Assembly (NCBI GenBank): GCA_017442535.1
Contig: JAFRZL010000044.1
Location: forward strand, 2,205-66,204
Length of the DNA: 64,000 bases
Reading direction: 5' to 3'
From: Bacillota bacterium
GTDB lineage: Bacteria > Bacillota > Clostridia > Lachnospirales > Bianqueaceae
The position numbers were made by a program, and so were the translations under genes. The notes under the pieces were generated by a model. It was not told the DNA's origin, did not search any database, and saw only the letters and a list, made by a program, of their open reading frames with translations. Within the stretch, counting starts at the first letter, position 1. The number at the start of each line of letters is the position of its first letter. Positions 14,742-46,820 of the stretch are shown in pieces.

Positions 14742-14771
14742 CCGGCGGATCACCTTCCGATGATCCGCCGG
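14742..14771 (-). terminator. Hairpin downstream of the PTS EIIC-like gene
   Basis: Stem CCGGCGGATCA / TGATCCGCCGG. The U-tract is weak. Confidence 0.5.
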
Positions 14772-14788
14772 CAGCATGTCTGACTTTA

Positions 14789-22704: not shown

Positions 22705-22755
22705 GCTGCTCCCTCCTTCCATGCTGTAGTCTCCGCTCAATGGAGTTCTTACCCG

Positions 22756-23583: not shown

Positions 23584-23598
23584 GTCGGACCTCCGGTA

Positions 23599-26161: not shown

Positions 26162-26211
26162 GATTAATACCCGTAAACCTCCGGTAAATGCGAATTAAGA
26201 ACAGCGGACTC

Positions 26212-28007: not shown

Positions 28008-28086
28008 AATGATCTCTCCTTTCTGTGTATAATTGTACATACTGCGCGGCCCGAAGTCCGCGCAGTATGTATGGAGAAACACTTAA

Positions 28087-29472
28087 TCAGTTGTTGTTGG
28101 CAAGAATCTTATTCGCTTCTTCTACAATCTTCTTGGCTGTTTCTTCCGGCGTAGCCATGCCGTAGAACATCTCTGCAAGACTGTCCGTGATCAGCGTACT
28201 GACTTCATTGGTACCGACCGGAGCCTGAGACTTGTACGCAACCGTCTGCAGCTTGGAAACCTTATCAACGAAGTTAAATACATCCTGAAGGATGGGCGTT
28301 GCGTTCTGGGACAGCATCTCACGGATCTGCGGGTTGATGGAAACACCGCGCTCACTTCCGAGAACCTTATTGCATTCCTCAGAGTTCACGACCCAGTTCA
28401 CGAATTTGATGCACTCGTCGGGATTGGTTGTCGCCGCATTAACGGACCAGTTCATGGATCCGCGGATCCAGAAGGGATTCTGTGTGCCGTTGGAAGCAAT
28501 CGGGCAAGCGAAGATACTGATCTCACGTCCGGCATAATTGTTGGCCGCATCCAGCTCATTCGACCAGTGAACGCGGAGCCAGGTCTCGCCCTTGGAGAAA
28601 ACATCGTCGCCCCAGACCTCACCGACGTAATTGTCATACGTGGGGGTCAGGCCGTCCTGATACAGACGATAGTCAACTTCCAGCAGCGGCTGCAGCTGTT
28701 CTGCCGTCATGATATAGGACTTCAGGTCATCTGCATATGTCTGCGTTCCGAAGTTCCTGTAATACGAGGAGAGGATCGTTCCGCCCTGCGTAATAAGGTC
28801 GGCCTTCTTGCCGGTCTTCGCATATACATCGCGAACCAGCTGCTCGTAATCCTCATACGTCCACTTCGTATCATCGACCGTAACGCCTGCCTCTTTAAGC
28901 GTCGCAACATCATAGTGGATGCCCAGCGCATTGGATCCGGCATTGATTCCATAATACTTGCCCTCATAGGTGTAGTCGCCGAAGGTGCCCATGGCGGAGG
29001 GATCGACATAGAGCGCTCCGCTCTCCACAAAGCTGTTAAGAGGATACAGCAGATTCTTACGAGCGTATTCCTGCGTGCGGGTCTCATTGAACTGCATGAC
29101 ATCCGCAAGCGTGCCGCCGGCCGCCTGTGTCGCCAGCTTCTCCCAATATGCCGAAAAAGCCAGGAATTCGGGCTCGATCGTGATATTGGGATTCTCCGTC
29201 GTATACATATCGATGATCTTAGCGGTCATCTCATTACGGGTATCATTTCCCCACCAGGAGAAACGCATGGTAAACTTTTCATCCACGGGAGCGGTCGAAG
29301 TTTCCTGCTTGGACTCTTCCTGCTTGGAAGCCTCCTGTTTGGAGGATTCCTCCGCTTTGGATGTCTGTGAAGATGAATTCCCGCCGGAACCGGAATTCTG
29401 TTTTCCAGGTGTGCATCCGAAAATCGATACGATTAAGCAGATGACCAATCCGATAGAGAGTAATCTCTTCAT
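28087..29472 (-). CDS. ABC transporter extracellular solute-binding lipoprotein (sugar-type)
   Basis: Lipobox MKRLLSIGLVICLIVSIFGC followed by an S/E/K-rich linker. 461 aa, first gene of the transporter operon. Confidence 0.88.
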   Translation of the reverse strand: MKRLLSIGLVICLIVSIFGCTPGKQNSGSGGNSSSQTSKAEESSKQEASKQEESKQETSTAPVDEKFTMRFSWWGNDTRNEMTAKIIDMYTTENPNITIEPEFLAFSAYWEKLATQAAGGTLADVMQFNETRTQEYARKNLLYPLNSFVESGALYVDPSAMGTFGDYTYEGKYYGINAGSNALGIHYDVATLKEAGVTVDDTKWTYEDYEQLVRDVYAKTGKKADLITQGGTILSSYYRNFGTQTYADDLKSYIMTAEQLQPLLEVDYRLYQDGLTPTYDNYVGEVWGDDVFSKGETWLRVHWSNELDAANNYAGREISIFACPIASNGTQNPFWIRGSMNWSVNAATTNPDECIKFVNWVVNSEECNKVLGSERGVSINPQIREMLSQNATPILQDVFNFVDKVSKLQTVAYKSQAPVGTNEVSTLITDSLAEMFYGMATPEETAKKIVEEANKILANNN

Positions 29473-29618
29473 CTTTGTTGCCTCCTTATACTGTTTTTAA
29501 GCGCTAGCTTAACTTATTTTCAAGATATCACAGGCATTTCAAGAGCACAATTGAAAAAAGGAATCAATATCGTTCAAAAAAACCACTTTATTTGATGCTT
29601 TGATCCGGCTTTATTTAA

Positions 29619-29647
29619 TTGATTGCCTGCCCTGATCATGTTATGAT
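29619..29647 (+). promoter_or_regulatory. Promoter of the sulfatase gene
   Basis: TTGATT, a 17-nt spacer, then TATGAT. Confidence 0.5.
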
Positions 29648-29677
29648 AATGATAAATAGACGAAGGAGGCGAAGAAA

Positions 29678-30994
29678 ATGAATTTCATTTATATCCATAC
29701 CCATGATACTGGCAGACTGGCTGAACCTTACGGAATCGCCGCTGATAATCCATCTCTTATGGAGTTTGCCCAAAATGCTGTGATTTTCCGGAACATGTAC
29801 TGCAGTGCGCCGACCTGCTCTCCCAGCCGCGCCTCCATGCTGACCGGTCAGGCGCCTCACAGCTGCGGGATGCTCGGCCTTGCGCACCGCGGCTTCTCGT
29901 TATCCCGGCCGGAGGAACATTTGTCACATTTTCTCAGTAAAAACGGCTATTATACCGCGCTGTTCGGCGTCCAGCACGAGGCTTCCGCCGAAAATATCGG
30001 CAGCCTCGGATATCGGGAGATAACCAATCTGGAAGGGAGCAGCTTCGAAGAAACGGACCTGAACAATTTGCGTGCCGCGCAGGCATTTCTGCTGGAGCAT
30101 TCCGATACGGATATGCCTTTCTTTATGTCTTTCGGCATGGTCAATACACATAAGCCCTGGCCGGACCGGTATTCAACCGATCCCGATTATGTCATCCCGC
30201 CTTATCCGGTCGCAGATACACCTGAAAACCGCGTTGAATACTGTCAGTATCTGGAAAGCCTCTCCGTCGTTGACAGCTGTGTCGGCGGCATCACCGAAGC
30301 AGTCCGGAAGGCCGGACTATGGGATAATACCATTATTCTTTTCACCACCGACCACGGCGTCGCCTACCCCAACATGAAATGCAATCTGTATGATACCGGA
30401 ATCGGCGTGTCCTTCCTGCTGCGGATCCCCGGATACCCCAAAAGATCCTGCAGTGCGCTTTGTACCCAGCTTGATCTGTTCCCAACGGTCTGCGATCTGC
30501 TTAATCTGGAAAAGCCATCCTATCTGCAGGGAAAATCTCTGCTGCCTCTGCTGAACGGCGAAGAGGAACAAATCCATGATTATGTATTCTCTGAGGTTAC
30601 TTTTCATGCGACATACCAGCCCATGCGCTCGGTCAGAAGCAAGCAGTTCAAACTCATCCGCTTCTTTGATGGAGGCAATGAATTCCGCTCCGCCAACATC
30701 GACGCCGGAACCGCAAAAACCCTGTATATCTCAACAAAACTCAGCCATCTTCCCAAACCGAAGGATCTGTTCTTTGACCTTTACGCCGATCCTGCCGAAC
30801 GCGTCAATCTCGCGGATGTTCCTGAATATGCCGAAGAATATTCACGTCATCTTGATGCCCTGCTTAAATGGCAGAAGCAAACGGATGATCCCCTGCTGCG
30901 GGGCATGACGATGTCTGAAATGGGCAGAGGCACTGTCATAAATGGGTTTGACGCCCCGGATCCTCAGCCCAAGTCTGCATTCGTGATCCGGTAG
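29678..30994 (+). CDS. Sulfatase (Cys-type formylglycine sulfatase family)
   Basis: Signature CSAPTCSPSRASMLTG (C-x-P-x-R) plus ...TTDHG.... No signal peptide is evident. The RBS is GAAGGAGG, and the promoter is TTGATT-17-TATGAT. Confidence 0.9.
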   Translation: MNFIYIHTHDTGRLAEPYGIAADNPSLMEFAQNAVIFRNMYCSAPTCSPSRASMLTGQAPHSCGMLGLAHRGFSLSRPEEHLSHFLSKNGYYTALFGVQHEASAENIGSLGYREITNLEGSSFEETDLNNLRAAQAFLLEHSDTDMPFFMSFGMVNTHKPWPDRYSTDPDYVIPPYPVADTPENRVEYCQYLESLSVVDSCVGGITEAVRKAGLWDNTIILFTTDHGVAYPNMKCNLYDTGIGVSFLLRIPGYPKRSCSALCTQLDLFPTVCDLLNLEKPSYLQGKSLLPLLNGEEEQIHDYVFSEVTFHATYQPMRSVRSKQFKLIRFFDGGNEFRSANIDAGTAKTLYISTKLSHLPKPKDLFFDLYADPAERVNLADVPEYAEEYSRHLDALLKWQKQTDDPLLRGMTMSEMGRGTVINGFDAPDPQPKSAFVIR

Positions 30995-31162
30995 GCTTTA
31001 CCGCCTTTCAGGATTAAAGATTAATCATAGCTCCTCCCAAAAGACCGCCCCCTCTTCCTTTCAGTTATATATCCATTATAACGTTTGGGCCAAGTAATTA
31101 CAAGCGGATGAGCGAATGTTTTCGAATAGTACAACCTGCTCCCTTCCCCAGCCGAAAAGCCG

Positions 31163-31191
31163 TTGCATAGCCGGCTCTTTTATGCTATAAT
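31163..31191 (+). promoter_or_regulatory. Promoter of the two-membrane-protein/M20 (and possibly STAND) operon
   Basis: TTGCAT, a 17-nt spacer, then TATAAT. It lies about 195 nt upstream of the first start codon. Confidence 0.55.
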
Positions 31192-31387
31192 GAAAGAAAC
31201 TATTTGTTTGCGAAAATCCCGGCGGATCTGTTTTCCGGCCGGGGTGACGGCAAGGGCTCGGGAATTGTACGCAAAGATGCGGAGAAATGAACGATTTCTC
31301 TTTCGGGCCTTTATTGTAATCTTTTTTGCAGATCCGGGGCCGGACGGTATCTGTGCGGTCCGGTCATATCCTGACAAGGAGGTTCCT

Positions 31388-32119
31388 ATGCTTCAACAGT
31401 TGAATTCGGGCGTATTGTATCTGATCTGCGGGGCTATTATTCTGTTTGTGGCCGCAGTCTGCGTTGTTTTTCTGGTGCGGGCGTACCGCGCCGGTAAGGC
31501 GCTCGGGATGGATGAGGCCGTTTTGAAGAAGACGATTACGGCGTCCGCTTCTTTCTCGGTTCTGCCCAGTATCGGTATTCTGCTGGGGGTTATCGCGCTG
31601 TCGGGCAGTCTCGGCGTGCCGTGGCCGTGGCTGCGGCTTTCGGTGATCGGGGCGCTGCATTACGAAACGCAGGTGGCCGAAGCGGCCGCGGAGCAGGTCG
31701 GCATGACCTCGCTGGACGCGTCTCAGATGACGGCGGGGGGCTTCTCCACGATCGCTCTGCTGATGAGTATCTGCATCATGTGGGGCATGGTCCTCTCCAT
31801 CTTCTTTAACCGCAAGTATGCTGGCAGACAGACCGTCCAGAGGAGCGGGCCCGGCTTTGGCGACCAGGCCATGGACGCGATGTTCATCGGGCTTGTGAGC
31901 GTCTATCTGGGATCCTACATCGGCGAATTTGTTTCGGGGAAGGGAATTTTTCACTTCACGGGCTCCTGGACAAGTCTGGCTGTCGCCGCGATCGCCGCGG
32001 CCGCCATGGCAGTCTTCCAGTACTTTATTGAGCACAAGAAGCAAAAATGGCTCGAGAGCTTTACCATTGCGGGCAGTATGCTGATCGGCATGATCGGCGC
32101 TGTTCTGATAGGGAGGTGA
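31388..32119 (+). CDS. Hypothetical polytopic membrane protein (DUF5058-like)
   Basis: The start is moved to the ATG at 31388, preceded by CAAGGAGG. The upstream part of the listed ORF contains the promoter -10 box. The DUF5058 resemblance is from memory. Confidence 0.65.
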   Translation: MLQQLNSGVLYLICGAIILFVAAVCVVFLVRAYRAGKALGMDEAVLKKTITASASFSVLPSIGILLGVIALSGSLGVPWPWLRLSVIGALHYETQVAEAAAEQVGMTSLDASQMTAGGFSTIALLMSICIMWGMVLSIFFNRKYAGRQTVQRSGPGFGDQAMDAMFIGLVSVYLGSYIGEFVSGKGIFHFTGSWTSLAVAAIAAAAMAVFQYFIEHKKQKWLESFTIAGSMLIGMIGAVLIGR

Positions 32120-32124
32120 GCACG

Positions 32125-32793
32125 GTGGATCAAACTGAAGTTTTTAAGAAATACGAATCCAAAACCCATCACATCGGAAGGATTACTTCGATTATCACTC
32201 TTGTGATGCTCATCGGCGCTCCTTTCCTGATCGGAAGCTATCTGGGCGCGCTGCCGGATCTGGGCGCCGCGGCAAAGGCTTTTCTGGCTGTAGGACTGGT
32301 ATGGCTGGTGAGCAGCATTGTCGAGTTCCTGATTTATACCCCGATGCTCGGTTCGGGGGGCGGGTATCTTGCCTTTATCACCGGTAATCTGATCAACATG
32401 AAGATCCCCTGCGCCATGACTGCCCGGGAGCTGGCCGGGACCAAGGTCGGAACGCCGGAGAACGAGATCATCTCCACGATTTCCATCGCCACTTCTTCGC
32501 TGGTGACCATCGTCATCCTGGCCGTAGGCGTGCTGCTGCTGGTACCGCTCCGCCCCGTCCTGACCAGCGAGGCGCTGCAGCCGGCCTTCAGCAACGTCGT
32601 TCCGGCTCTGTTCGGTGCCATGGCCTACAAGTATTACCGTAAAAACATCCGCGTCGCCCTGGTTCCGCTGGTCGTCATGAGCCTCCTTTTCATCCTGGTT
32701 CCTTCCCTGATTTCCCAGACCAGCATCATGATCATTCCGAGCGGCGCGATCGCGATCCTGCTGGCCTATCTGCTCTGGAGGAAAAAGAAATGA
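32125..32793 (+). CDS. Hypothetical polytopic membrane protein, second subunit-like gene
   Basis: GTG start at 32125, preceded by GGGAGGTGAGCAC. It has about six hydrophobic helices and its end overlaps the M20 gene start as ATGA. Confidence 0.6.
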   Translation: MDQTEVFKKYESKTHHIGRITSIITLVMLIGAPFLIGSYLGALPDLGAAAKAFLAVGLVWLVSSIVEFLIYTPMLGSGGGYLAFITGNLINMKIPCAMTARELAGTKVGTPENEIISTISIATSSLVTIVILAVGVLLLVPLRPVLTSEALQPAFSNVVPALFGAMAYKYYRKNIRVALVPLVVMSLLFILVPSLISQTSIMIIPSGAIAILLAYLLWRKKK

Positions 32794-34238
32794 CAGCCCT
32801 TAAAATCATCGGATTCACGCTGCTGGGGCTGATCTGCCTCCTGATCCTCCTACTGCTCGCGGCCGTCATCCATACCCTCCTCAGTCCCTCGAAGAAATCC
32901 GGGTATACCGCGCCTGCAGAGGATGACCGTGCCCGGGAATATGCCCGCAAACTGTCCCGGATGGTACGGTATGACACCACTTCCTACATGAATATCGACC
33001 AGCCGGAGAAATTCGAGGGCTTCCACCGCGTGCTGGAGGAACTCTTTCCCCTTGTTCACGCCAGGCTGCAGCGGACCGATATCGACGGCAATCTGCTCTA
33101 CCGCTGGGAAGGCCGGCGCCACGATAAGCCGGTCGTCCTGATGAGCCACCAGGACGTTGTGCCTGCGGAAGGCCAATGGGAACATGAACCTTTTTCCGGT
33201 GATATCGCGGACGGCAAAGTCTGGGGGCGGGGCGCTTCCGACACCAAATGCTCGGTGATGGGTTTCTTTCAGGCGACGGAGGAGCTGCTGGCGGAGGATT
33301 TTGTCCCGGAGCAGGACGTCTATCTCTCTTCCTCCTGCACGGAGGAATGGGCCGGCGACGGGTGCCCTAAGCTTGTTGCCGAATTAAAGAAGCGCGGCGT
33401 GAAGCCCAGCCTCGTCATCGATGAGGGCGGCGGCATCATTGCGGACCCCATCGGCGGGATTCACGGCAATTTTGCCATGGTCGGCGTGTTCGAAAAGGGA
33501 AAGGCCGACGTGTCCTTACATGCGAAAAGCAATGGCGGACACGCCAGTACCCCCAGACCGGGCTCTCCTTTGGCACGGCTTGCGGACTTCATTTATGAAG
33601 TGGAACACCACCATCCTTTCCGGAAGAAGCTGCCGCCGGAAGTGCGCAGCATGTTTGAGACGCTCGGCCCGTACGCTTCCTTCCCGCTGAAGCTCGTCTT
33701 CGGCAATCTCTGGCTCTTTAAGCCGATCCTTGTGCCCCTCCTCCCCGCGATCAGTGCGCAGGCGGGCGCCATGATCCAGACCACGGTCGCGTTTACGATG
33801 GCCAAAGGTTCCGACGCCTATAACGTGATGCCCCAGGAAGCGGTTCTCGGCGTGAATATGCGCTTTATCCCGCATCAGGGCATGGAGGAAAGCCTGGGAA
33901 TCATGAAGAAGCTGGCCGGGCGCCACGGACTCACCATGGAGGTGCTTGCCGCATCGGACTATACCGAATCTGCCGATATCCACGGTCCGGAATTCGCGTT
34001 TGTCAAAGAAATGATCGGCAGGACCTTCCCCGGACTGCCCGTCAGCCCCTATGTTATGACAGGTGCCACAGACTCGCGCTTTTACCAGGATATCTGCCCG
34101 AATGTCTTCCGCTTTGCGCCCGTCATCTATGGGCCGGAGCAGATGAAAGGCATGCACGGGCTCAACGAAAACATCGAGTACAACTGTCTGCCCGGCGCGG
34201 TGGATTTCTATAAAAACGTCATCCGCGAGAACCGGTAA
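32790..34238 (+). CDS. M20/M25/M40 family metallopeptidase or deacylase with an N-terminal membrane anchor
   Basis: N-terminal TM (ALKIIGFTLLGLICLLILLLLAAVI) followed by M20 motifs ...VLMSHQDVVPA..., ...GRGASDTKC... and ...IDEGGG.... Confidence 0.88.
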   Translation: MTALKIIGFTLLGLICLLILLLLAAVIHTLLSPSKKSGYTAPAEDDRAREYARKLSRMVRYDTTSYMNIDQPEKFEGFHRVLEELFPLVHARLQRTDIDGNLLYRWEGRRHDKPVVLMSHQDVVPAEGQWEHEPFSGDIADGKVWGRGASDTKCSVMGFFQATEELLAEDFVPEQDVYLSSSCTEEWAGDGCPKLVAELKKRGVKPSLVIDEGGGIIADPIGGIHGNFAMVGVFEKGKADVSLHAKSNGGHASTPRPGSPLARLADFIYEVEHHHPFRKKLPPEVRSMFETLGPYASFPLKLVFGNLWLFKPILVPLLPAISAQAGAMIQTTVAFTMAKGSDAYNVMPQEAVLGVNMRFIPHQGMEESLGIMKKLAGRHGLTMEVLAASDYTESADIHGPEFAFVKEMIGRTFPGLPVSPYVMTGATDSRFYQDICPNVFRFAPVIYGPEQMKGMHGLNENIEYNCLPGAVDFYKNVIRENR

Positions 34239-34270
34239 GCCAGATTTTTTCAGAACAGGAGCGTACGATT

Positions 34271-37200
34271 ATGATGCATTCAGAGGCTTTATATCCGGCG
34301 GCAGCCCGTTTGGGGGAGCTGTGTACCAACGGATTGTTTTTGAATCTCAGGGGATTCCCGGAGCCTTTGCGGCTCTGTTATCAGCAGCTGCGGACGAGAA
34401 TCCGTGAAGAGGCCCTGCCCGGGGCCTGTTTGCTGTTGGCAGAGATGGCCGGGATCTGCATACGCTTTCCGCTGCTTGCGGCCTGTTCACTGGCGCTTCA
34501 TGCCGAGGCACCGCTTTCTGACAAGAAACGTGCGCTTGGCCTGCTGAATGATTCGGGGACGCTCGCAGGCGGGTTGAGGGAGTTTTTCCGGGCGCATCCG
34601 CAGGACGTGGGCGCGCATTTGCTCGATGTGGCGGATGACGCGCTGCGGACTTTTTCGGCGGAGCCTTTTACCGGGTGGCTTGGACGGGCCACTTCGGGAG
34701 CCTATCTGGAGATGCGGCGGACGGAGGCGGCCAGCAGTCTGCTCGCGCAGCTGACGTCGCTGAACGGTCATCTGCAGCGGGCGGAGGGTTTTTATGCGCT
34801 GCTTCGTGACTATGCAGATGAGGACGGGCGTTCTTTCCGGTATCTGGAGCAGAGTCTGCGCCCCGATCCGTTTATTCTGTTCCAGGATAGGGATATCCTG
34901 CTGGCGGAGCATTATGACACGGCTTCGGGCAAGGTCTTTTTCCGCTCGCCGGTGAGTGGGTATCTGACTCTGATGGATATTCCCGAACTGACGCAGATCC
35001 TGCGGACGGCGGAGGACGGTTCTGCCGTGGAAGAAGTGCCGACACCGGATGCTTTCCCGGAATATGGGGATCCTGCTCAGCTGGAAAGTGTCCACCAGCC
35101 GTCGGATTATATCCGTCCCGGCTACCTGGATCAGTGGCTTTCCCGTGGGCTGGCGCACCGCGACCACGGATATTTATATCTGGAGATGGAGGAAGGCATG
35201 GGCAAATCTTCTTATGTCGCCATGCTGGATCCGGATTCTCCGTATTATACGCCGACCACGCTTTTTGCTAATTATCACATTATCATTCATACGATGACCA
35301 TTGCGCCGCAGACCTGGGAGGGCAGAGCGCTGGCCGATTTGCTGAACGGGTTGGAGGGCGCACCGCGGCCGCTTATCTGGACGGATTCGGTGGCCGATAT
35401 GCGGAGGGCTCTGGCGGAATGGCTGCACGATTATGCCGCCGCGCATCCGGAGCGTAAGCTCCTGATCATCCTTGACGGCCTGCAGTATATTGAGCGTCCG
35501 ACGGAGGAAGGGCTGCTGACAGCACTGCTGCCGCGGGCCGGCCAGCTGCCCCCGGGCGTCTGCATCCTGCTGACGGACAGACCGGACCCCGAAGCCGCGG
35601 TCCACGCCGCGTGGCTGCACCGCCTGGATCCGGAGGCCGTTATCGGTGTGTTCAAGCACGATCATCCGCAGTACCAGCAGCTTTTCCGCGTTTATCTGAC
35701 CCAGTATCTGCTGCACGCGAGCGGCGAGGATAATCCGCTCGTCACCGCCCTGGGCGAATATCTGCAGGGGGATTTTGCCATGGCACATACCCTGCGCGAT
35801 GTCTATTATCTCTGCCGGCCTGATCCGCATACTTCTGTGCGGCAGCTTGCAATGCAATTCCCCACGCAGGAGGATCTGCTGCACCTGTATCTGGACCGGG
35901 TGCACGCACTTTACGGTCCGAAATGGGGCATCATGCTGGATGAAATGCTTGTGGCTCTCGCGATGCTGCCGCGTCCGGCCACGCAGGAAGAATTGTTCCG
36001 CGCCATGCCGGATCATCCGTCGCCCGAGGCCTTCTACAGCCTGCTGCGGGATCTGCGGCCCTTTATCTACCTGACTGCCGGACGGAGGATCACTTTCTCC
36101 GGAAACACCGCGCTTTTCTTTATCTATTCCTACCTTGCGGCGGACTGGAAGCTGCTCTGCGAAAGGATCCTGGATGAACGGAGGCTCCTGCTCGGCTCGG
36201 CTCCGGATGCCTACGCGCTGCCCGAGCGCCTGCAGAATCTCCCTGTTTATGCGGCTTCCGTGCCATGGGACAACCATCGCGAGCTCCTGATCCATCTGGG
36301 CCGGAGCCTGGCGCCCAAAGCCTCCCGCAGCGATTCGCTTCCCTCTGATGTCCTTGATTATTACAATCTGCAGAGCGGGAATTTCCGCCATGAGGGCGAA
36401 AATCCGCTGCGGCTTGAGACCATCGCGGCTCTCTCGCTCTCACCGGATACCAATGACCGGCTGACGGCCTGCCGCCGCATGGATTCGCTGCGCGGGACCA
36501 TTCATTATGACCGGGCGACCTACGAGCTGTACTGCCGCCGCTACGAAGAGCGTCTCGCGGCCGATCAGCCGCTTTCCGCCGCTGTGATCACGGCCCTCGC
36601 CGCCTTCCGGCGCAAAAATGACTATCCGAAGGAAAATGCTTTCCTCTGGCATACCGAATATCTGTCACGCGGAGCTTTATACGAAGCGCTCAAAAACGAA
36701 TCCGCCCGGCTTCCGGGTAAGGAATTATCCACTGCCGACCCGCGGGAGATCGCTTATGTGCGCGAAAAATACCCGCAGCTGGCGGACCGGCTGCAGGCAT
36801 TGATCTCTGACTATGACGCCGCCCCAGCCGAGCCCCGGGGCATCGCCGCGCTGCAGGAGGCTGCCGTTTTGTCGCACCAGATGATGAGCTTTGGCGAGAC
36901 GGCTCTGGTCACGCTGCTGCCCGTCCTCTGCATCCGTGACGCCCAGCCCGAAACAGGGGCTTATTTCGGCGTGATCCGTGATACTCTAAACCGCGTCTAT
37001 CAGCTGCGGCAGGAGATTTTTGCCCGCATCGAAGCCTACGGTGCCGCACTAAGGCCGGAAACGGACTATCGCGAGCCTCTCTATGCGCCGGACACCCGTG
37101 AGATCCGGCGCCGCGATCTGCTCGCACGTGACCTCTTCCAATGGCTCATGACCTTCACCCGCTACCAGCGGATGCAGTATTATGCCGACCGCACGCCCGA

Positions 37201-38599
37201 CAGGCGCCTCGTCGAAGCTTTGCTGCGGCTGAATACCCCCGGCGCATCCCCGTCCGGCGAGTCCGTCAATCTGCGCACGGTGCGCAGCCAGATCGACGCC
37301 CTCGAACCCGAAGCCGCCTACGCCCTGGCCGACCGCTGGGTCAGATCCCTGACCGATGCCTACAGCGTTATCCGCGGCCCTATTCCCGCTGCCCGTGCCG
37401 GCGACCTGGCCGCTGCCCTTTTGAAACGGGCCGATACGGCCGTCAAGCTGCTGCAGAGCGCCCCCACCGAGGAGCTGCGCGAAAGCCTGCATGCCGATGT
37501 GGAGCGCCTGCGCTTCCTCCTTGGCGAATGCGACCTCAGCTCGCGCCGCGCGCTTGAGACGGCCGGGAGCCTCGCCGCAGACCTGCTCCCCGCGGACGAA
37601 AAATCCATTTTCGCCAATTCCAAGGAGCTCGTGGATGAATATCAGGCCCTCAACGCTTCTTTGCAGAAAGCCCGCTCTTTCTTCAGCAGTAAGCAGATCG
37701 ACCAGGTGCTTGACCAGTTCCGGGACGGCTTCCTCCGCTGCCTGCGCCGCCATCATTTCTACAGCTATCTGATCCCCGCAGAAGCCAGGCTCGACGCAGT
37801 CGAAAACGGGCCGCTCGCCTGCCGTATGCGCGTAGACGAATCCACCGATCCCGCGGACAAGATCACGGCCTATCTGTCCCTGATCACCGCTTCACCCGAA
37901 AAAGACCTGCCCAGGGGCGAGCTGCAGGTCTATCTGCAGGAGCTCGTCACTAAGCAGGCCTCTGACATCCCGGCTGAATTGCTGGACTATTGTATGACGC
38001 TCGGGCTTGAGCAGAATCATCAGAATCCTGCCCACCAGCTGCCCTACACCGGCGGGCTCTACCCGCTCTGGCTGCATCTGGGCGCTCCCGATCCGGCCCA
38101 GGCCGGTCTGGACGGCAGGATCCCCGCCGCGGGGCGCCAGATCTACCGCCGCCTCTCCGCGAGCTTTGTCGTCGAGGATGCGCCCATCCATCCGGAGAAA
38201 CTGCGCGTGCAGGTGCAGCGCGAGGATTCCGATCCGCTGCACCAGGCTTTCGCGTATCTATGCCTCGCCATCACCGCCGGGGGCAGGACTCTCTCACGCG
38301 CCGCCAAGCTGCTTGAGATGGCAGAATCTGCCCTGGCCGCAAGCCCGGACCCCGCGCCCGAACTGGCTTTGGCGCTGATCCGCACCCGGATCATTCTTCA
38401 CTGCCTGGACGAGGCATCCTCTCCCGAGGCTCTCTCCGAACTGCTGGACGAATACCGTGAACGTACACAGACCGCCATGCCCGGCACCTCGCCGGAAGCT
38501 GTCCGCGAAGCCATGGCAAAGCTCCCGGTCGCGGCCTATGCGAGGCTCTGGCAGACCACGCTACGGCATCAGATCCCGCCTGCCCTTGCACGGCTATAA
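34271..38599 (+). CDS. Large STAND/NACHT-like P-loop NTPase (1,442 aa) with unassigned N- and C-terminal regions
   Basis: A 4.3-kb uninterrupted ORF with GC3-rich codons and an AGGAG RBS 9 nt upstream. Walker A-like EEGMGKSS at nt 35189-35212, Walker B-like KLLIILDG at 35456-35479, and a NACHT-like CILLTDRPD at 35561-35587. The coding call is firm. The function is inferred. Confidence 0.8.
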   Translation: MMHSEALYPAAARLGELCTNGLFLNLRGFPEPLRLCYQQLRTRIREEALPGACLLLAEMAGICIRFPLLAACSLALHAEAPLSDKKRALGLLNDSGTLAGGLREFFRAHPQDVGAHLLDVADDALRTFSAEPFTGWLGRATSGAYLEMRRTEAASSLLAQLTSLNGHLQRAEGFYALLRDYADEDGRSFRYLEQSLRPDPFILFQDRDILLAEHYDTASGKVFFRSPVSGYLTLMDIPELTQILRTAEDGSAVEEVPTPDAFPEYGDPAQLESVHQPSDYIRPGYLDQWLSRGLAHRDHGYLYLEMEEGMGKSSYVAMLDPDSPYYTPTTLFANYHIIIHTMTIAPQTWEGRALADLLNGLEGAPRPLIWTDSVADMRRALAEWLHDYAAAHPERKLLIILDGLQYIERPTEEGLLTALLPRAGQLPPGVCILLTDRPDPEAAVHAAWLHRLDPEAVIGVFKHDHPQYQQLFRVYLTQYLLHASGEDNPLVTALGEYLQGDFAMAHTLRDVYYLCRPDPHTSVRQLAMQFPTQEDLLHLYLDRVHALYGPKWGIMLDEMLVALAMLPRPATQEELFRAMPDHPSPEAFYSLLRDLRPFIYLTAGRRITFSGNTALFFIYSYLAADWKLLCERILDERRLLLGSAPDAYALPERLQNLPVYAASVPWDNHRELLIHLGRSLAPKASRSDSLPSDVLDYYNLQSGNFRHEGENPLRLETIAALSLSPDTNDRLTACRRMDSLRGTIHYDRATYELYCRRYEERLAADQPLSAAVITALAAFRRKNDYPKENAFLWHTEYLSRGALYEALKNESARLPGKELSTADPREIAYVREKYPQLADRLQALISDYDAAPAEPRGIAALQEAAVLSHQMMSFGETALVTLLPVLCIRDAQPETGAYFGVIRDTLNRVYQLRQEIFARIEAYGAALRPETDYREPLYAPDTREIRRRDLLARDLFQWLMTFTRYQRMQYYADRTPDRRLVEALLRLNTPGASPSGESVNLRTVRSQIDALEPEAAYALADRWVRSLTDAYSVIRGPIPAARAGDLAAALLKRADTAVKLLQSAPTEELRESLHADVERLRFLLGECDLSSRRALETAGSLAADLLPADEKSIFANSKELVDEYQALNASLQKARSFFSSKQIDQVLDQFRDGFLRCLRRHHFYSYLIPAEARLDAVENGPLACRMRVDESTDPADKITAYLSLITASPEKDLPRGELQVYLQELVTKQASDIPAELLDYCMTLGLEQNHQNPAHQLPYTGGLYPLWLHLGAPDPAQAGLDGRIPAAGRQIYRRLSASFVVEDAPIHPEKLRVQVQREDSDPLHQAFAYLCLAITAGGRTLSRAAKLLEMAESALAASPDPAPELALALIRTRIILHCLDEASSPEALSELLDEYRERTQTAMPGTSPEAVREAMAKLPVAAYARLWQTTLRHQIPPALARL

Positions 38600-39466
38600 T
38601 GATTGATTTAGGTAATACAGATAGACTTCTTCCAGACCCGTATGACTGTCCTCCGGAGCAAAACCCTCCGGCGGGCAGTCCCCAATGATCCTGACCCGGA
38701 GCTTCCCCTCCCCGGCATGGAAAACATTGCTGATCCGGTACTGCTGCTGCAGTTCCGGGAGCTTTGATTCCTCAATCATGCCTTCGGAGACTTTGCCGCG
38801 GATGCTGGCAACCAGTTCCGGGACGCTGCCTTTGATCAGGACTTTGCCTTCCGAAAGCAGCAGAACCTCTCCTGCGATTCCTTCAATATCGCTGACTACA
38901 TGGGTCGCAATCATGACGATTTTGTTGCCCGCGATCTGCGAAATATAATTACGGATGCGGATGCGTTCTTCCGGATCCAGCCCCGCGGTCGGTTCGTCTA
39001 AAATCAGCACCTCGGGATCACCCAACAACGCCTGGGCCAGCATGACCCGCTGCTTCATCCCGCCCGAGAAGCTCCGGATCCGCTGGTCTTTGTTTTCGTG
39101 CAGATTGACCACGCCGAGCAGCTCGTCGCTCTGCCGCCTGGCTTCGCGCGGCGCGAGCCCCTTCAGTCCCGCCATGTACTGTAGGAAATGTCTTGCGGTG
39201 AACTCTTCGTACATGCCCTGCTGCTGGGGCATATAGCCAACCTTCCCGCGGAAAGCCTGCCCCAGTTCCAGGATATCCGTCCCGTCATAGGTAATGGTAC
39301 CGGCGGTGCGCTTCAGGTTGTCGGTCAGCAGATTCATCATCGTGCTCTTGCCGGCGCCATTCGGCCCGAGGATCCCGTAGACCCCGGCACGGAATGTCAG
39401 ATTCACATGGTCAAGCGCCACTTTGCTGCCATATTCCTTGGTCAGATCTTTCAAAACAAGTTCCAT
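38594..39466 (-). CDS. ABC transporter ATP-binding protein (ABC-2/DrrA-type)
   Basis: Walker A GPNGAGKST, signature FSGGMKQRV, Walker B VLILDEPTAGLD. Confidence 0.92.
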   Translation of the reverse strand: MELVLKDLTKEYGSKVALDHVNLTFRAGVYGILGPNGAGKSTMMNLLTDNLKRTAGTITYDGTDILELGQAFRGKVGYMPQQQGMYEEFTARHFLQYMAGLKGLAPREARRQSDELLGVVNLHENKDQRIRSFSGGMKQRVMLAQALLGDPEVLILDEPTAGLDPEERIRIRNYISQIAGNKIVMIATHVVSDIEGIAGEVLLLSEGKVLIKGSVPELVASIRGKVSEGMIEESKLPELQQQYRISNVFHAGEGKLRVRIIGDCPPEGFAPEDSHTGLEEVYLYYLNQSL

Positions 39467-39481
39467 TCCGTCCCTCCTTCT

Positions 39482-41746
39482 CTACCGGGTCCGTACCCAG
39501 TGTTGCCGTGCGTAAATCCCTCCACAGGCACCTAATATCATCACAGCCGCAAAGCCCAACCATGCGGCCCCTGGTTTGTTGATCACGATTTCCATCCACT
39601 CCAGCAGTCCGGGCAGAGTCGGATCCGTCCGCCCTCCCCAGATGTTCAGCACCACGCCCGGAGCGATCAGCACGATTATCAGGATGAGCAGCGCCGCCGG
39701 AAGCGACTTGCATCCGGCGGAAATCCCCATAGTGAGGATCCCTGCCGCCATCAGCATGGCCAGCCGCAGGCCATAGATCAGGATGATCCAGCCGCGGATC
39801 GACAACCCGATCCCCGTCCCCGCCATAAAGGAAAGGTTGCAGACCGGCGCTTCCGGGATCTGTAGCTCCTTTGCCTGCCGGATAAAATGCAGGAACTGCC
39901 AGCCGTAGATCAGGAGCCACACCCCTGCGGAAAGGGTCAGCGCCACGATTGTCTTCCTGCGGATCCACTGCGCTCTCCCCTGCGGCACCGCCCGGAGCAG
40001 CAGTATAGAAGCCCTGCGGTTATCGTAAACACCGATCCCCGCGAGGAGCAGCAGTACGCCGCCAAGCGAAAGCACTGCGTCCAGCAGCCCTTCCGACCGG
40101 GTTACCTTTGGATCGAGCAGCAGGCGGTAGGTGTTCTCCGGCACGATATAGGCGGCCGCGCCGCCCGCTTCCTGCCGGGCCAGGCCGTTCTCCGCCAGTT
40201 CAAAGATCTTCTGCAGTTCAACGGTGGAGACTTCCAGCGACTGGATCAGTTCCCGGAGCTGTTCGGAAGGCGTCTTGGCTGCGGCCTCCGCGTTCAGTTT
40301 GTCCAGGTTCTCACTCCAGGCCTGGATCTGCCGGTCGATTTCCTCCAACCTCTCGGAAGTGACCTGTCCGCTGTACTGGGTGGCCAGCTGGTCGTGAACG
40401 ATATCGCTATCATACAGGAAAAGTGTGGGCACATGCAGTGTCAAAATCCGCAGCACAACGAGCGCCGCGATCAGGATCCAGCCTTTCTGCGGGATCAGCA
40501 CCTTGTAGAATTCGTTATAAAGCCGTCCGGGGGCGGTAAAAACCCGGGACAGTCCACCGCCCATCCTCCGGAGCAGCCGCGCAATCGGCCCCATACTGGT
40601 TCTGGGCCGTGATCCGCTTTGCCTGAGCAGATTGCACACACCTAGCACCAGCGACAGAATCCCCAGCGAGACCGCCGCGAAGGACACCGCCTGCACCAGC
40701 AGTCCCCACCAATACACATTGTAATAATGCGTCAGCCACTGTATCTGATCAATTCCATAGAACAGATTCACGTATTTGAGGGGCGCCATGATACTGTAAT
40801 CCGGGACCGTACTGTACAAGACATATTCCACGGCCGTAAAGATGCCAAGGATCAACCAGCTGAGCGCTTCGGTCCCGGCAAACGACAGCAGCAGCCAGAA
40901 AATCATTCCGATGAAAAACGCTCCCAGGATCTTGCCTCCCAGATAGATCAGCACCATCCCACCCATCCGTACCGGTATCCACTGTCCGCGGAACATCAGC
41001 ACGGACTGCACTGTCCGCCTCATATCAGGCATCTCGCCATAGATCGCTGCGTTGCAGAGAAACCTCGCTCCAAGCATGATCACCGTGCCCCCTGCGGCGC
41101 CCGCAAACAGGATCAGCAAACGCTTCACAGCCAGCCGCAGCCTCCCTTCGCGGGTCGCATAGACCAGCTCGTGCATGCCCCGCCGTCTCTCCTCCGTCAA
41201 TACCAAACAGAGCAGCGCGATCCAGATCACCAGCAGATAATCCGGCAGACTGACCTCAAAAAAGCCGTTCCAGACCAGATCCGAATCAAGCCTAAGCTCA
41301 ATCTGCCCCAGGCGGCCGTAATCCACGTACGTCTTCACAATATTCTGATAGCTTACCGACTCCGGCCGGTTGAAAAGCGGCGACTGACTGAGCTTTTCAG
41401 CATGCTCCTGTATCTGTACCAGATATTCAGGGTAGCTCTGGATGTGCTCGATCTGCGCCTGCAGATCCTGCGCCACTACCTGTTCGAGTGTAAAAACCAC
41501 ATGCCGGTCGTACCGGCCCTTTTCGTTAAGCGGTGGCATCATGTCCTTGATCGCGACAAGCGCTTCCTCAAGGCTCATCCCCTGATACCGCTCGAGCTGG
41601 GCATGGTATTCGGCTGTATATGCCCTCAACCGGCGGTCGGCCTTCTGCTGCGCGCTCCACCAGCCGGACAGCACAATAAGAAGGATTGCCGCAAGCAACC
41701 CTCCCCATACGCGCACACTTCCGAAAACTCTCCTCATCTCATTCAT
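39482..41746 (-). CDS. Large duplicated ABC-2-type permease-like membrane protein (754 aa)
   Basis: Two similar modules, each with one TM, a helical extracytoplasmic domain of about 130-170 aa and about 5 TM. It sits 15 nt upstream of the ATPase gene. Confidence 0.78.
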   Translation of the reverse strand: MNEMRRVFGSVRVWGGLLAAILLIVLSGWWSAQQKADRRLRAYTAEYHAQLERYQGMSLEEALVAIKDMMPPLNEKGRYDRHVVFTLEQVVAQDLQAQIEHIQSYPEYLVQIQEHAEKLSQSPLFNRPESVSYQNIVKTYVDYGRLGQIELRLDSDLVWNGFFEVSLPDYLLVIWIALLCLVLTEERRRGMHELVYATREGRLRLAVKRLLILFAGAAGGTVIMLGARFLCNAAIYGEMPDMRRTVQSVLMFRGQWIPVRMGGMVLIYLGGKILGAFFIGMIFWLLLSFAGTEALSWLILGIFTAVEYVLYSTVPDYSIMAPLKYVNLFYGIDQIQWLTHYYNVYWWGLLVQAVSFAAVSLGILSLVLGVCNLLRQSGSRPRTSMGPIARLLRRMGGGLSRVFTAPGRLYNEFYKVLIPQKGWILIAALVVLRILTLHVPTLFLYDSDIVHDQLATQYSGQVTSERLEEIDRQIQAWSENLDKLNAEAAAKTPSEQLRELIQSLEVSTVELQKIFELAENGLARQEAGGAAAYIVPENTYRLLLDPKVTRSEGLLDAVLSLGGVLLLLAGIGVYDNRRASILLLRAVPQGRAQWIRRKTIVALTLSAGVWLLIYGWQFLHFIRQAKELQIPEAPVCNLSFMAGTGIGLSIRGWIILIYGLRLAMLMAAGILTMGISAGCKSLPAALLILIIVLIAPGVVLNIWGGRTDPTLPGLLEWMEIVINKPGAAWLGFAAVMILGACGGIYARQHWVRTR

Positions 41747-42092: not shown

Positions 42093-43016
42093 TTAGGTCC
42101 TGCTGATATAATTGGCTGATACCATCATCGACATTGCATACCAGAAGTGGTCCGTTATAGAAAGCTGCGCTTTCCCGCGAAGGCTCCCCCTGCCAGAGCC
42201 TATTTCTTTATTCTCCTTAAACGAATAATACATGAGTTCGTCCGAGACCGGTGAGGCAGCACCATCTATGTACTCACCATATACAAGCAGATGCCACGTA
42301 ATCCCGTCCCTTCCGACACCGCTGATGAAGATGGCCGTCTCCAAATCGCTCTCAACCCGATACAATTCGGTCAGTTTATCGGCCGTCAAATCCCACTCCA
42401 CCACACGGCGGATCCACTTCCGGACGGCACGGCTGTGCCTATCCTGATATACAGCCACCGGCCAGGAACAATATAACTTGTTCTGAAATAAGACAGCCTC
42501 CATCAAATATGCATAACTGTCCTGATAGTCCATCTCCTGAGAGCAAAGGAGCTTACGTTCGCGCGTCTCCAGATTAACCTCTGTAATCGAAACAACCTCG
42601 CGATCCATATACTGCTGTCCACTTTGCTCAACTGAATACGAATCTTCCAATACAAGAATCCGGTCTGCATCATACGCCAGCACCGCTGATCTATAGGGGA
42701 AAAGTGCCGGACAATCCGGGTTTTCCCCCGGCTGATGGGTACAGCCCGGATTCCAGCAAACGGCTTGAGTCGTCCCGTCCTTCAGATTCACAGCTGTTAA
42801 TCGAAGACGGTTTTCCTTGCCGGGCGCCTCCGTTGGCTCCATGTAGATAATGATGCTGCCATCTGTTGCTACCGCGTCATAGACACTGCCCGCGCCGGTT
42901 CTGCCGCACAGAAAAAAACATTTGTTATCGGCCTTGTCTTCCACCGGTCTCCAGGAAGAGCAGCCGCTGAAGCATATACTAAGTAGGCTTAATAATATGA
43001 GGATGTGCTTTTTCAT
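42093..43016 (-). CDS. Hypothetical lipoprotein (DUF5050-like motif)
   Basis: Lipobox MKKHILILLSLLSICFSGC. The Cys/His motif CWNPGCTHQPGENPDC resembles that of the 12909-14273 lipoprotein. Confidence 0.7.
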   Translation of the reverse strand: MKKHILILLSLLSICFSGCSSWRPVEDKADNKCFFLCGRTGAGSVYDAVATDGSIIIYMEPTEAPGKENRLRLTAVNLKDGTTQAVCWNPGCTHQPGENPDCPALFPYRSAVLAYDADRILVLEDSYSVEQSGQQYMDREVVSITEVNLETRERKLLCSQEMDYQDSYAYLMEAVLFQNKLYCSWPVAVYQDRHSRAVRKWIRRVVEWDLTADKLTELYRVESDLETAIFISGVGRDGITWHLLVYGEYIDGAASPVSDELMYYSFKENKEIGSGRGSLRGKAQLSITDHFWYAMSMMVSANYISRT

Positions 43017-43078
43017 TTGGTTGTCACGGTCAAAAGTGATAGGTTTTTAAACACACCAACAATCCTGGTTCTTTTAGA

Positions 43079-43438
43079 CTAATGATATATATACACATAC
43101 TGTGAATATACTGGTCCAGGATATGTCAGCCAATATTTCACTTCTATTTTTGCCCAACTGGTTGTCTGTGTCAGCACAGGTGGATATGGATCGCAAAATT
43201 CAAATATTTGTGGATTTGAACCCGAGACGGTTTCTAGCCAGACAGCATTAGGATCTATATGCTCGCCTGTGCCGTCTGTAACAATATAATAATTCACCTT
43301 AACACGTGCTCCTGTGTCTAGAATTACAATAACATAATCATAATAAGATGAATATTCCTCCACCTCCGGTCCGCCCTCGTTTACCTCAATCTCTGCAGCA
43401 CTTGTTCCAAGCGGGAAACAAAGCATCAATAACAGCAT
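43079..43438 (-). CDS. Hypothetical secreted protein (119 aa as listed; the signal peptide appears disrupted at an A6 tract)
   Basis: The hydrophobic N-terminus MLLLMLCFPLGTSAAE lacks a charged n-region. An upstream ATG at 43469 would restore MTLKRILVVWMLLL... if the A6 tract were A5. Confidence 0.55.
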   Translation of the reverse strand: MLLLMLCFPLGTSAAEIEVNEGGPEVEEYSSYYDYVIVILDTGARVKVNYYIVTDGTGEHIDPNAVWLETVSGSNPQIFEFCDPYPPVLTQTTSWAKIEVKYWLTYPGPVYSQYVYIYH

Positions 43439-43575
43439 CCATACAACAAGGATTCTTTTTTAATGTCATTTTTTATAATAAATACCCCCTATAATTATAG
43501 CTTCTTTATAAACATCATATCATGCCTTCTATTTCCTGTCAAGCAGAACATGCGCACCCCATTCCTTTTTTTATT

Positions 43576-43605
43576 AAAGCCAAGCTGACTATCTGCTTGG
43601 CTTTT
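43576..43605 (-). terminator. Hairpin downstream of the PHP gene
   Basis: Stem AAAGCCAAGC / GCTTGGCTTT with T/A-rich flanks. Confidence 0.55.
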
Positions 43606-43642
43606 CATTAATCATAATAATATTCGAAAAACTGATTATTTC

Positions 43643-44440
43643 TTACTCTTCAAACACTCCTGCGTCCATCGGCAGATACCGTACGATCTGAAGCCCGAAT
43701 CGGTCCGAGAGTGCCTGCGCCGCGGCCTCGGCTTGCTCGTCCCCGATTGCTTCGGGCTTGTGCGCGTCCATCCCCCAGATCACGTCGCAGCCTTCCTCGC
43801 CCACGATCCGCCAGAAATCAGGATTCGGATAATGGCGGTGCGTGGCGATGCCCAACAGATTGATCTCCAGCGGCACGCGGTACTTTTTTGCATACCGGCA
43901 GAGCTTGTGCGTCTCGCGCTCATAGATCTCAGGATCTCCCACATAATGCATCAGGTCCGGATGCGCGAAATACGCAAAACGACCGGTCGCCATCCCTTCT
44001 CCAGTCAGCTCGACATAGCGGTGCAGCAGCTCCGCGTCCCCGGTCTCGCGTCCGCAGTATTTTCCTTCGTATTCCGGGCCCAGAAAATGCTGCCCCAGGA
44101 TAAAGTATTCCACGCCCGCATCATCCGCGCGGCGCATCAGTTCGTCAAACATACCGGGCATATATTCGGCTTCGAGCCCCAGATGGATCGTGATCTCGCG
44201 CGAAAATTCCTCCGCGAGGCCGCGAACGACCCGCGCATAATTCGGCAGCTCCTCCATCGGCATCCGCATGCCGGACACAAATCCCGCGGGGTAGGGCTGA
44301 GGCGAATGATCCGCAAAGCCGAAGACGCGGACGCCTTTCAGGATCGCCCTCTCCACATACTCTCTCTCCGTCCCTACCGCATGCATGCAGCGCGTTGTAT
44401 GCGCGTGATAGTTGGCCTTAATCATCGATTCGTTTTCCAT
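43643..44440 (-). CDS. PHP-family histidinol-phosphatase-like hydrolase
   Basis: The start is set at the ATG at 44440 (MENESMIKANYHAHTTRCMHA...). PHP His motifs include ...FGFADHSP... and ...FAHPDL.... Confidence 0.85.
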   Translation of the reverse strand: MENESMIKANYHAHTTRCMHAVGTEREYVERAILKGVRVFGFADHSPQPYPAGFVSGMRMPMEELPNYARVVRGLAEEFSREITIHLGLEAEYMPGMFDELMRRADDAGVEYFILGQHFLGPEYEGKYCGRETGDAELLHRYVELTGEGMATGRFAYFAHPDLMHYVGDPEIYERETHKLCRYAKKYRVPLEINLLGIATHRHYPNPDFWRIVGEEGCDVIWGMDAHKPEAIGDEQAEAAAQALSDRFGLQIVRYLPMDAGVFEE

Positions 44441-46563: not shown

Positions 46564-46820
46564 AATTGCCCTCCTTAGTATACGCTGCGTATGCAATGGA
46601 TATTGAATAACAGCGAATTTCCCATACATAGACATTATACACCATAATTGTCAATATGGGAAGATGCTGCGCCAAATTCGCGCAAAAAAAGCTCAAATCC
46701 CGCAACCCCGGAGCTGATTATTCTTGCAGCTTTTTTCATATTCTCATAAGAAGTACTTGATTTTTCCGATCATTTATGCCATAATAAGGGAAATTAAACC
46801 ATTTGAAAGGTGGTACTACT

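Follow-up and report, generated by a model that had tools for sequence, protein, structure and literature searches.

A divergent NACHT-type STAND protein in a Clostridia genome that lacks its family's signature motifs

The stretch of DNA considered here (the window) is 64,000 nucleotides (nt) long and comes from contig JAFRZL010000044.1 (assembly GCA_017442535.1, positions 2,205 to 66,204 of the forward strand) of a Bacillota bacterium placed in the Bianqueaceae (Clostridia; Lachnospirales). It carries a gene for a 1,442-amino-acid (aa) protein whose predicted structure is that of a STAND nucleoside triphosphatase (NTPase) and whose relatives point to descent from a family of NACHT proteins with a helical, HEPN-like N-terminal domain. 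In the small clade to which the window protein belongs, the residues that mark both the N-terminal domain and the NACHT module of that family have been replaced, and the gene is kept under purifying selection. In our best explanation, to which we give a probability of roughly 0.55, the protein is an NLR-like sensor or scaffold that has been domesticated and has lost its catalytic activity; most of that confidence lies in the structural and evolutionary part of the explanation. It is the combination that is unusual: an effector-like motif and the NACHT signature both lost, backbone-like inheritance, and strong new conservation at the N terminus. Bacteria have many uncharacterized STAND proteins whose termini are unassigned, and the window protein does not represent a new kind of system.

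Results

An intact gene with few full-length relatives

The gene is a single unbroken open reading frame (ORF) with an ATG start and, as read from the sequence, an AGGAG ribosome-binding site 8 nt upstream of it (Table 1). Its product is a 100% match to P0001, the NCBI protein IJM90_08095 from a metagenome-assembled genome (MAG) of a Firmicutes bacterium, where it is annotated "hypothetical protein." An earlier interpretation made without database searches (the sequence-only reading) had described one uninterrupted ORF at these coordinates, in agreement with the ORF list and the translation, and the three NTPase motifs that it named lie exactly where it put them: EEGMGKSS at aa 307-314 (nt 35189-35212), KLLIILDG at aa 396-403 (nt 35456-35479), and CILLTDRPD at aa 431-439 (nt 35561-35587).

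On the window protein itself, Pfam NACHT (PF05729) scores 17.2 bits over aa 394-443 (E = 0.0046), short of its gathering threshold of 26.7; PADLOC matches 0 families, NCBIfam gives no match, and no PDB sequence is retrieved by a profile built from the protein together with its close relatives. The profile searches that had been proposed as a check of the NTPase assignment thus end, for the protein taken singly, in a sub-threshold NACHT match and no PADLOC family; it is the relatives that reveal the family. A word-indexed search of 5.8 billion clusters retrieved the window protein itself and two full-length relatives at 43-44% identity, and HMMER, run exhaustively against 1.84 billion representatives with a profile of aa 1-1190 as the query, retrieved four full-length representatives (P0002, P0004, P0005, and P0006) and a few fragments. 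Adding the window protein and P0003, which is 84% identical to P0002, gives six sequence clusters, the window clade. The full-length relatives stand at 29-45% identity, clade members with a named source all come from ruminant-gut Bacillota or Clostridiales MAGs, and the reading frame, 1,390-1,456 aa long, is intact in all six clusters. The description of the protein as an orphan holds insofar as full-length relatives are very few (three in 5.8 billion clusters, four in 1.84 billion representatives), but not for its N-terminal domain and NTPase, which it has in common with the 363 representatives that match the clade profile at E ≤ 1e-3 in the HMMER search.

A STAND fold followed by a clade-specific solenoid

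An AlphaFold2 model of aa 1-700, built from a 71-sequence alignment, reached a predicted local distance difference test score (pLDDT) of 90.4 and a predicted template modeling score of 0.90. Searched against the PDB with Foldseek, it retrieved Apaf-1 (E = 7e-6), CED-4, plant NLR resistosomes, NOD2, and the archaeal STAND-TPR protein 6mfv, in matches that span 400-630 aligned columns at a probability of 1.00, as well as SAMD9 and ORC/Cdc6. At the level of the predicted structure, the STAND fold, with its nucleotide-binding domain (NBD), helical domain, and winged-helix domain, is thereby confirmed for the window protein. The assignment to a NACHT/STAND-like NTPase, first made from the motifs, is borne out in its STAND part by the model and the Foldseek matches and in its NACHT part by the Pfam matches of the relatives. 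The proposed three-part layout, an N-domain, the NTPase, and a long C-terminal helical region, also stands. Between the beta subdomain that follows the helical N-domain and the NBD, the model places a disordered linker; the beta subdomain itself corresponds to a block that reads "IYFFDSY...LNY" in relatives and "ILLAEHYD" in the window protein.

The region after the NTPase had been called all-alpha and free of helix-turn-helix (HTH), TPR, or WD40 signatures, and both statements hold: the model is all-alpha there, and Pfam finds no such match. When the C-terminal 823 aa were modeled with AlphaFold2 from six sequences, a wholly helical structure of about 36 helices was obtained (pLDDT 77.6), for which Foldseek returned weak, generic solenoids only (importin-beta, Ctr9, and Ski3; best E = 1.6e-3). 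No HTH output domain is found by Pfam or NCBIfam, and the C-terminal model consists of the solenoid only. The solenoid sequence is specific to the clade, the more distant relatives aligning only to about aa 600. We also considered that it might be a homolog of the relatives' TPRs and rejected this, as hhalign finds it unrelated to the TPR arrays of the relatives or to the C terminus of the nearest outgroup, P0010, and Foldseek gives only the generic solenoids.

A parent family with a zinc ribbon, a helical N-domain, NACHT, and TPRs

About 350 of the 363 proteins (1,000-1,780 aa long) align to aa ~26-600 only, that is, to the N-terminal domain plus the NTPase, with E values over aa 26-600 down to 1e-30. 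Among 38 sampled relatives, Pfam detects NPHP3_N in 31, NACHT in 20, and TPR families in 28, and PADLOC gives no consistent match. Because the clade profile matches these ~350 proteins, with NPHP3_N and NACHT at the stated frequencies in the sample, the window protein is, judging by profile alignment, NACHT by descent. The proteins of this parent family are called "hypothetical," "TPR repeat protein," or "Nephrocystin 3-like N-terminal domain-containing protein" in their sources, and they come mostly from Bacillota, among them Lachnospiraceae, Ureibacillus, and others. Their consensus begins with a CxxC...CxxC zinc ribbon and continues with a helical domain ("AHEYxRL..GQxYGAxLQLKDxFEVxLKFP" and "IVxWRNxxIGHGAL"), the beta block "IYFFDSY..LNY," an NTPase with the Walker A motif "ERGMGKTT," the Walker B motif "LLxIIDGLDEIP," and "VYILLTxRT," and, last, the TPRs. 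Within the N-domain, the relatives are invariant for K-D..E and W-R-N-x(2-3)-H, subject to the column counts given below.

Several observations on these relatives are compatible with a HEPN-like N-domain. R-N-x(2-3)-H fits the HEPN signature Rx4-6H, with a polar residue (Asn) after the Arg, and the domain is all-alpha in the AlphaFold2 model: its first hairpin is long, an insert comes next, and the motif position lies just ahead of a long helix, an order that HEPN domains would allow. Below the Pfam threshold, HEPN_MAE_28990 (E = 0.004) aligns over the RN..H stretch, and HEPN_AbiU2 (E = 0.068) and HEPN_RiboL-PSP (E = 0.12) also appear, so that three different HEPN families are found among a handful of sub-threshold matches. 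Fusions of an N-terminal HEPN domain to a STAND NTPase and TPRs have been described in bacteria (Anantharaman et al., 2013; PMC3710099). A PDB profile search with the N-domain gave 0 matches, a word-indexed search with the N-domain profile gave 11 unnamed fragments, and in both Foldseek runs with the aa 1-700 model the matches were mainly to the ATPase. We regard a HEPN-like nature of the relatives' N-domain as a supported inference, drawn from the motif and the sub-threshold matches, and not as a result; for the window protein the question is moot, because the motif is absent there.

The parent family, sampled here as P0010-P0152 (two of its loci are L004, 6149-11359, and L005, 10001-13879), deserves a note of its own. 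It is sizeable and uncharacterized, it has a conserved WRN..H N-domain without a Pfam model, and it is absent from PADLOC 2.0; this WRN..H-NACHT-TPR family may be an uncatalogued, HEPN-like NLR candidate defense family.

Residues lost and kept in the window clade

We compared alignment columns between the six clade members and the 38 distant relatives, using the numbering of the window protein. In the N-domain, K57 (K in 36/38 relatives), E61 (E in 37/38), and R137, N138, and H143 (38/38 each) are all replaced in 6/6 clade members, whereas W136 is conserved on both sides. At the corresponding positions, the window protein reads LAEMAG and W-LGRATSG-AYLEM; no Rx4-6H motif occurs in the clade, the window stretch W136-L-G-R-A-T-S-G-A-Y being without His. 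Across all retrieved relatives, by comparison, WRN..H is present in 120 of 122 N-domains. The sequence-only reading had left both ends of the protein unassigned, which needs amending for the N terminus: it belongs to a conserved domain family, and the putative catalytic motif of that family is lost here.

In the NTPase, the Walker A residues G309-M-G311-K312-S313 are invariant in the clade (Gly, Lys, and Ser/Thr kept in 38/38 relatives), and D402-G403 of Walker B is conserved throughout, with D402 invariant in the clade and in 38/38 relatives. The acidic pair that follows is gone: column 405 is D in 37/38 relatives and Gln or His in the clade (Q405 in the window protein), and column 406 is E in 38/38 relatives and variable in the clade (window Y406). 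The window protein thus reads D402-G-L-Q-Y where NACHT proteins have DGhDE, and the motif D[GAS]h[DE][DE] is found in 128 of 132 retrieved relatives versus 0/6 clade members. What had been called an acidic Walker B is therefore acidic in its single Asp, D402, and lacks the NACHT pair. The Sensor-1 Arg (R437; R in 37/38 relatives) is kept in 4/6 clade members, including the window protein (T435-D-R437), and the winged-helix His of column 611 (H in 26/38 relatives) is absent from the clade at that column, with no nearby His in the window protein. Both WRN..H and the acidic Walker B motif persist in the nearest outgroups, P0010 and P0035, so that their absence from the clade is a derived loss.

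D[GAS]hDE has been used to separate NACHT from other STAND clades (bioRxiv 10.1101/2022.07.19.500537). By sequence, then, the window protein is NACHT by descent yet fails the defining NACHT signature. In AAA+ and STAND enzymes, the acidic residues after the Mg-coordinating Asp are needed for hydrolysis. Because this pair is replaced, we infer that the window protein binds nucleotide with little or no efficient hydrolysis.

The most conserved stretch of the clade lies elsewhere. The peptide ELCTNGLFLNL (aa 16-26), which forms part of an N-terminal cap (N-cap), is conserved beyond any NTPase motif, and 43% of the N-cap columns are invariant in the clade versus 12% overall. The wider family has the CxxC...CxxC zinc ribbon at this position. 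In the N-domain, a second clade motif, R..TSGAYLEM, stands in for WRN..GHGAL.

Purifying selection and conserved synteny

The ratio of nonsynonymous to synonymous substitution rates (dN/dS) was obtained from one genome pair (loci L002 and L003), in which the STAND proteins are 76% identical. It is 0.154 for the STAND gene overall (0.17 in the N-terminal region, 0.18 in the NTPase, and 0.13 in the C-terminal region), versus 0.062 for glgB and 0.078 for the PHP gene of the same pair. The STAND gene is under purifying selection, and the full-length conservation of the relatives together with a dN/dS of 0.15 identifies the ORF as a real gene and not a chance frame.

Between genomes, the STAND protein diverges in step with GlgB, albeit faster: identities of 37-43% go with GlgB identities of 70-76%, and 76% goes with 93%, in the same ranking. 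In four of the five informative loci (L001, L002, L003, and L007), glgB lies divergently and directly upstream of the STAND gene; in the window it lies 12.5 kb upstream, and the window and L002 share the collinear order GH3, glgB, STAND. No relatives on viral contigs were found in the scan. The STAND gene thus behaves as a vertically inherited, backbone-like gene of its lineage. A core gene always syntenic with the M20 peptidase operon had been named as the finding that would point to a metabolic regulator; the synteny is indeed backbone-like and conserved, but with glgB and not with the M20 gene.

The gene had also been suspected of being a compositional outlier, which is not the case. Its GC content is 61.7% (window mean 54.4%), only 11 of its 72 60-nt lines reach at least 70% GC, and its GC content at third codon positions (GC3) of 0.717 equals that of its neighbors (M20 gene, 0.737; ABC ATPase gene, 0.701; gene for a 754-aa protein, 0.734). 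The surplus sits in codon position 1 (0.683), because the protein is rich in Ala, Leu, and Arg, and does not reflect foreign DNA. A horizontal island or compositional outlier is ruled out by GC3 and conserved synteny. Stronger outliers than the STAND gene are four low-GC patches of the window (39-45%, against an average of 54%) at 6001-7000, 13001-15000, 43001-44000, and 58001-59000.

Discussion

In the explanation that we favor, the clade descends from a family combining a zinc ribbon, a HEPN-like domain, NACHT, and TPRs, and it has lost the K..E and R-N-x(2-3)-H residues of the N-domain (a putative RNase site, and with it probably any nuclease activity), the two NACHT acidic residues, and recognizable TPR sequence, while keeping the P-loop Lys and the Mg-coordinating Asp. 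The solenoid would bind a partner or a ligand; the STAND module would change its conformation or its oligomeric state, gated by nucleotide that is bound but hydrolyzed little or not at all; and the output would be non-catalytic, consisting of protein or RNA binding by the remodeled N-domain and the hyperconserved N-cap. In its behavior the gene is a domesticated backbone gene of its lineage and not a mobile, stand-alone suicide effector.

A number of points weigh against this. The dN/dS of the STAND gene is 2-2.5 times that of its neighbors and the protein diverges fast, a pattern that is also typical of conflict genes. The backbone-like behavior is drawn from about six sequence clusters and five informative loci, the HEPN assignment from sub-threshold matches and the motif, and the C-terminal model, made from a 6-sequence alignment, is only moderately confident at a pLDDT of 77.6. 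The missing DE pair predicts, without proving, lost hydrolysis. Finally, ELCTNGLF, R..TSGAYLEM, and the purifying selection on the N-domain could mark a new active site and not a binding surface. One may go further along this line and picture a HEPN-derived N-domain rebuilt around a new conserved site (the ELCTNGLF N-cap plus R..TSGAYLEM), joined to a hydrolysis-dead NACHT and a novel 800-aa solenoid; we think this rather improbable, but if it is true, a bacterial NLR would here have acquired a new output chemistry or a new function as an adaptor and would have become a fixed backbone gene in a lineage of rumen Clostridia.

The protein had first been put forward as a candidate single-gene sensor or defense module, and an active antiphage sensor of the Avs or bNACHT type is a possibility that we hold to be doubtful. 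The solenoid would recognize a phage protein, the STAND module would oligomerize, and the N terminus would be a new effector acting through ELCTNGLF and R..TSGAYLEM. Avs and bNACHT proteins typically have this three-part architecture, and the parent family, with its HEPN-like effector, NACHT, TPRs, and diverse C termini, resembles a conflict system; the fast divergence with a dN/dS above that of the neighbors, the clade-specific C terminus, and the hyperconserved N-cap would all suit such a role. There is also precedent for the losses, since KpAvs8 is a defense STAND protein with degenerate Walker motifs (PMC13581612) and catalytically inactive effector domains have been noted in bacterial NACHT proteins (bioRxiv 10.1101/2022.07.19.500537). 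Against these stand the 0 matches in PADLOC, the lack of defense or mobile genes nearby, a scan that found no viral or prophage relatives, the native GC3, a conserved synteny and vertical inheritance that are not island-like, and the loss of all putative catalytic residues of the parent family. The layout thus fits the antiphage proposal, which is nevertheless not the best-supported one, and the results are compatible both with a defense role and with its absence.

A housekeeping role, that of a MalT-like STAND protein that senses a metabolite and regulates carbohydrate or glycogen metabolism, would make sense of the divergent glgB directly upstream in 4/5 informative loci, of the backbone-like inheritance, and of the position in the window, where the STAND gene follows a putative glycan-utilization block and the M20 gene on the same strand, with no terminator between. 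We nonetheless judge it unlikely: no DNA-binding or other output domain is detected, the relatives, which combine NACHT and TPRs with an effector-like N-domain, are not regulators, and the STAND protein evolves much faster than its metabolic neighbors. Nor is the linkage to glgB obligatory, because the window genome keeps the gene in spite of the 12.5 kb that separate the two. The simultaneous loss of several signature motifs of the parent family might, on the other hand, suggest a decaying relic on its way to a pseudogene, but all six clusters keep an intact frame even at divergences that leave GlgB 70-76% identical, each of the three regions has a dN/dS within 0.13-0.18, new clade-invariant motifs are present, and the AlphaFold2 model is confident. 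Such a relic is highly improbable, a pseudogene being essentially refuted by the dN/dS values and the full-length conservation.

Known systems resemble the window protein in part. bNACHT proteins (Pfam NACHT/NPHP3_N; Kibby et al., bioRxiv 10.1101/2022.07.19.500537) have the same STAND module of NBD, helical, and winged-helix domains, an N-terminal effector-type domain, and a C-terminal repeat or solenoid region, and the relatives of the window protein match NPHP3_N and NACHT and carry D[GAS]hDE; in contrast, the window protein has DGLQY in place of the DE pair, falls below the Pfam NACHT threshold, has lost the conserved polar residues of the family's N-domain, and sits in a backbone-like, not a defense-associated, context. 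Like the Avs proteins (PMC13581612), it follows the general scheme in which an effector is combined with a STAND NTPase and a long helical sensor, and the functional member KpAvs8 likewise has degenerate Walker motifs, but it matches no PADLOC Avs model, its NTPase lineage is NACHT-like, and it has neither a recognizable effector nor a defense-island context. The HEPN-STAND-TPR fusions (PMC3710099) are resembled by the wider family, with its all-alpha N-domain carrying R-N-x(2-3)-H, its STAND NTPase, and its TPRs; the HEPN Pfam matches of that family stay below threshold, and the window clade differs in lacking Rx4-6H. Apaf-1, CED-4, and the plant and animal NLRs provide the best Foldseek matches, yet at 11-16% identity and with other N- and C-terminal domains, and the structural match does not discriminate between NACHT and the AP-ATPase clade. 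Unlike MalT/AfsR-type regulators, the window protein has no HTH output domain detected by Pfam or NCBIfam, and unlike TPR sensors, it has no TPR Pfam match in its C terminus, which is a generic alpha-solenoid with weak TPR/HEAT matches.

Bacterial NLR-like proteins have mostly been studied as mobile, catalytically armed antiphage sensors. The window clade appears to show the opposite course, in which effector-like residues and hydrolysis residues were lost and the protein was retained under purifying selection, its place in the chromosome staying fixed over divergence at the family level. Should this be confirmed, the clade would offer a tractable bacterial "dead-enzyme" NLR that serves, with nucleotide bound, as a scaffold or sensor, with a logic like that of eukaryotic helper, decoy, or regulatory NLRs.

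Feature coordinates and genomic neighborhood

Table 1. Features of the STAND gene and of its surroundings in the window
Feature	Positions	Strand	Basis or remark
Ribosome-binding site AGGAG plus spacer	34254-34270	+	Inside the 32-nt gap after the M20 peptidase gene
Whole gene, divergent NACHT-type STAND protein, 1,442 aa	34271-38599	+	ORF list, translation, relatives, dN/dS
N-cap, aa 1-28	34271-34354	+	Clade alignment, conservation scan
Helical N-domain, aa 29-178	34355-34804	+	Profile alignment; AlphaFold2 pLDDT 87-98
Small beta subdomain, aa 179-237, seven strands	34805-34981	+	AlphaFold2 secondary structure, alignment
Alpha/beta NBD, aa 284-465	35120-35665	+	Motifs, sub-threshold Pfam NACHT, Foldseek
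Helical domain, aa 466-565, and winged-helix domain, aa 566-645	35666-36205	+	AlphaFold2, Foldseek
C-terminal ~800-aa all-alpha solenoid, presumed sensor	36206-38596	+	AlphaFold2, Foldseek, hhalign
12.5-kb block between glgB and the STAND gene	21949-34238		Absent there in L001, L002, L003, and L007
Tandem creatininase-family genes	22756-23583 and 23599-24432		Within the 12.5-kb block
ABC ATPase gene and gene for 754-aa protein	38594-41746	-	Convergent with the STAND gene
Antisense ORFs of 226, 405, and 235 aa	34487-36391 and 37049-37756	-	Within the STAND gene
Na/Pi-cotransporter-PhoU gene	44947-46635		A few kb from the STAND gene

No defense or mobility genes were found near the STAND gene, whose neighbors are an ABC transporter, a sulfatase, DUF5058, M20, glgB, and others. 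The M20 peptidase gene ends 32 nt upstream on the same strand, an adjacency particular to the window genome. A scan for promoters and terminators stayed at chance level and placed no terminator in the gap between the two genes, and co-transcription with M20 in the window genome is, on this sequence evidence, likely. No conserved partner gene was found across the loci, and the downstream genes differ: the window has the convergent ABC ATPase gene, L002 has an ORF for a lipoprotein-like product of 227 aa, and the contig of P0003 has ApbE.

The 12.5-kb block that separates glgB from the STAND gene in the window encodes an AraC-type response regulator and a histidine kinase (a two-component system), the two creatininase-family proteins, an ABC sugar transporter (two permeases and a solute-binding protein), a sulfatase, a DUF5058 protein, a 248-aa protein of no assigned function, and the M20 peptidase; it looks like an inserted utilization locus for sulfated glycans or peptides. 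On the other side, the gene for the 290-aa ABC ATPase overlaps the STAND stop codon by 6 nt. Directly upstream of it on the minus strand lies the gene for the 754-aa protein, which has no Pfam family and is possibly a novel permease or sensor partner, and further upstream are ORFs of 307 aa and 119 aa without matches. The antisense ORFs are of the kind expected in GC-rich coding DNA, and homology and dN/dS back the plus-strand frame only.

A Na/Pi-cotransporter-PhoU gene is found a few kb from the STAND gene both in the window and in L004 (1373-3013), the locus of the nearest outgroup, P0010, from a Lachnospiraceae MAG. The shared PhoU-type neighbor may be a remnant of synteny, which would suggest that the motif-retaining and motif-lacking forms are orthologous.

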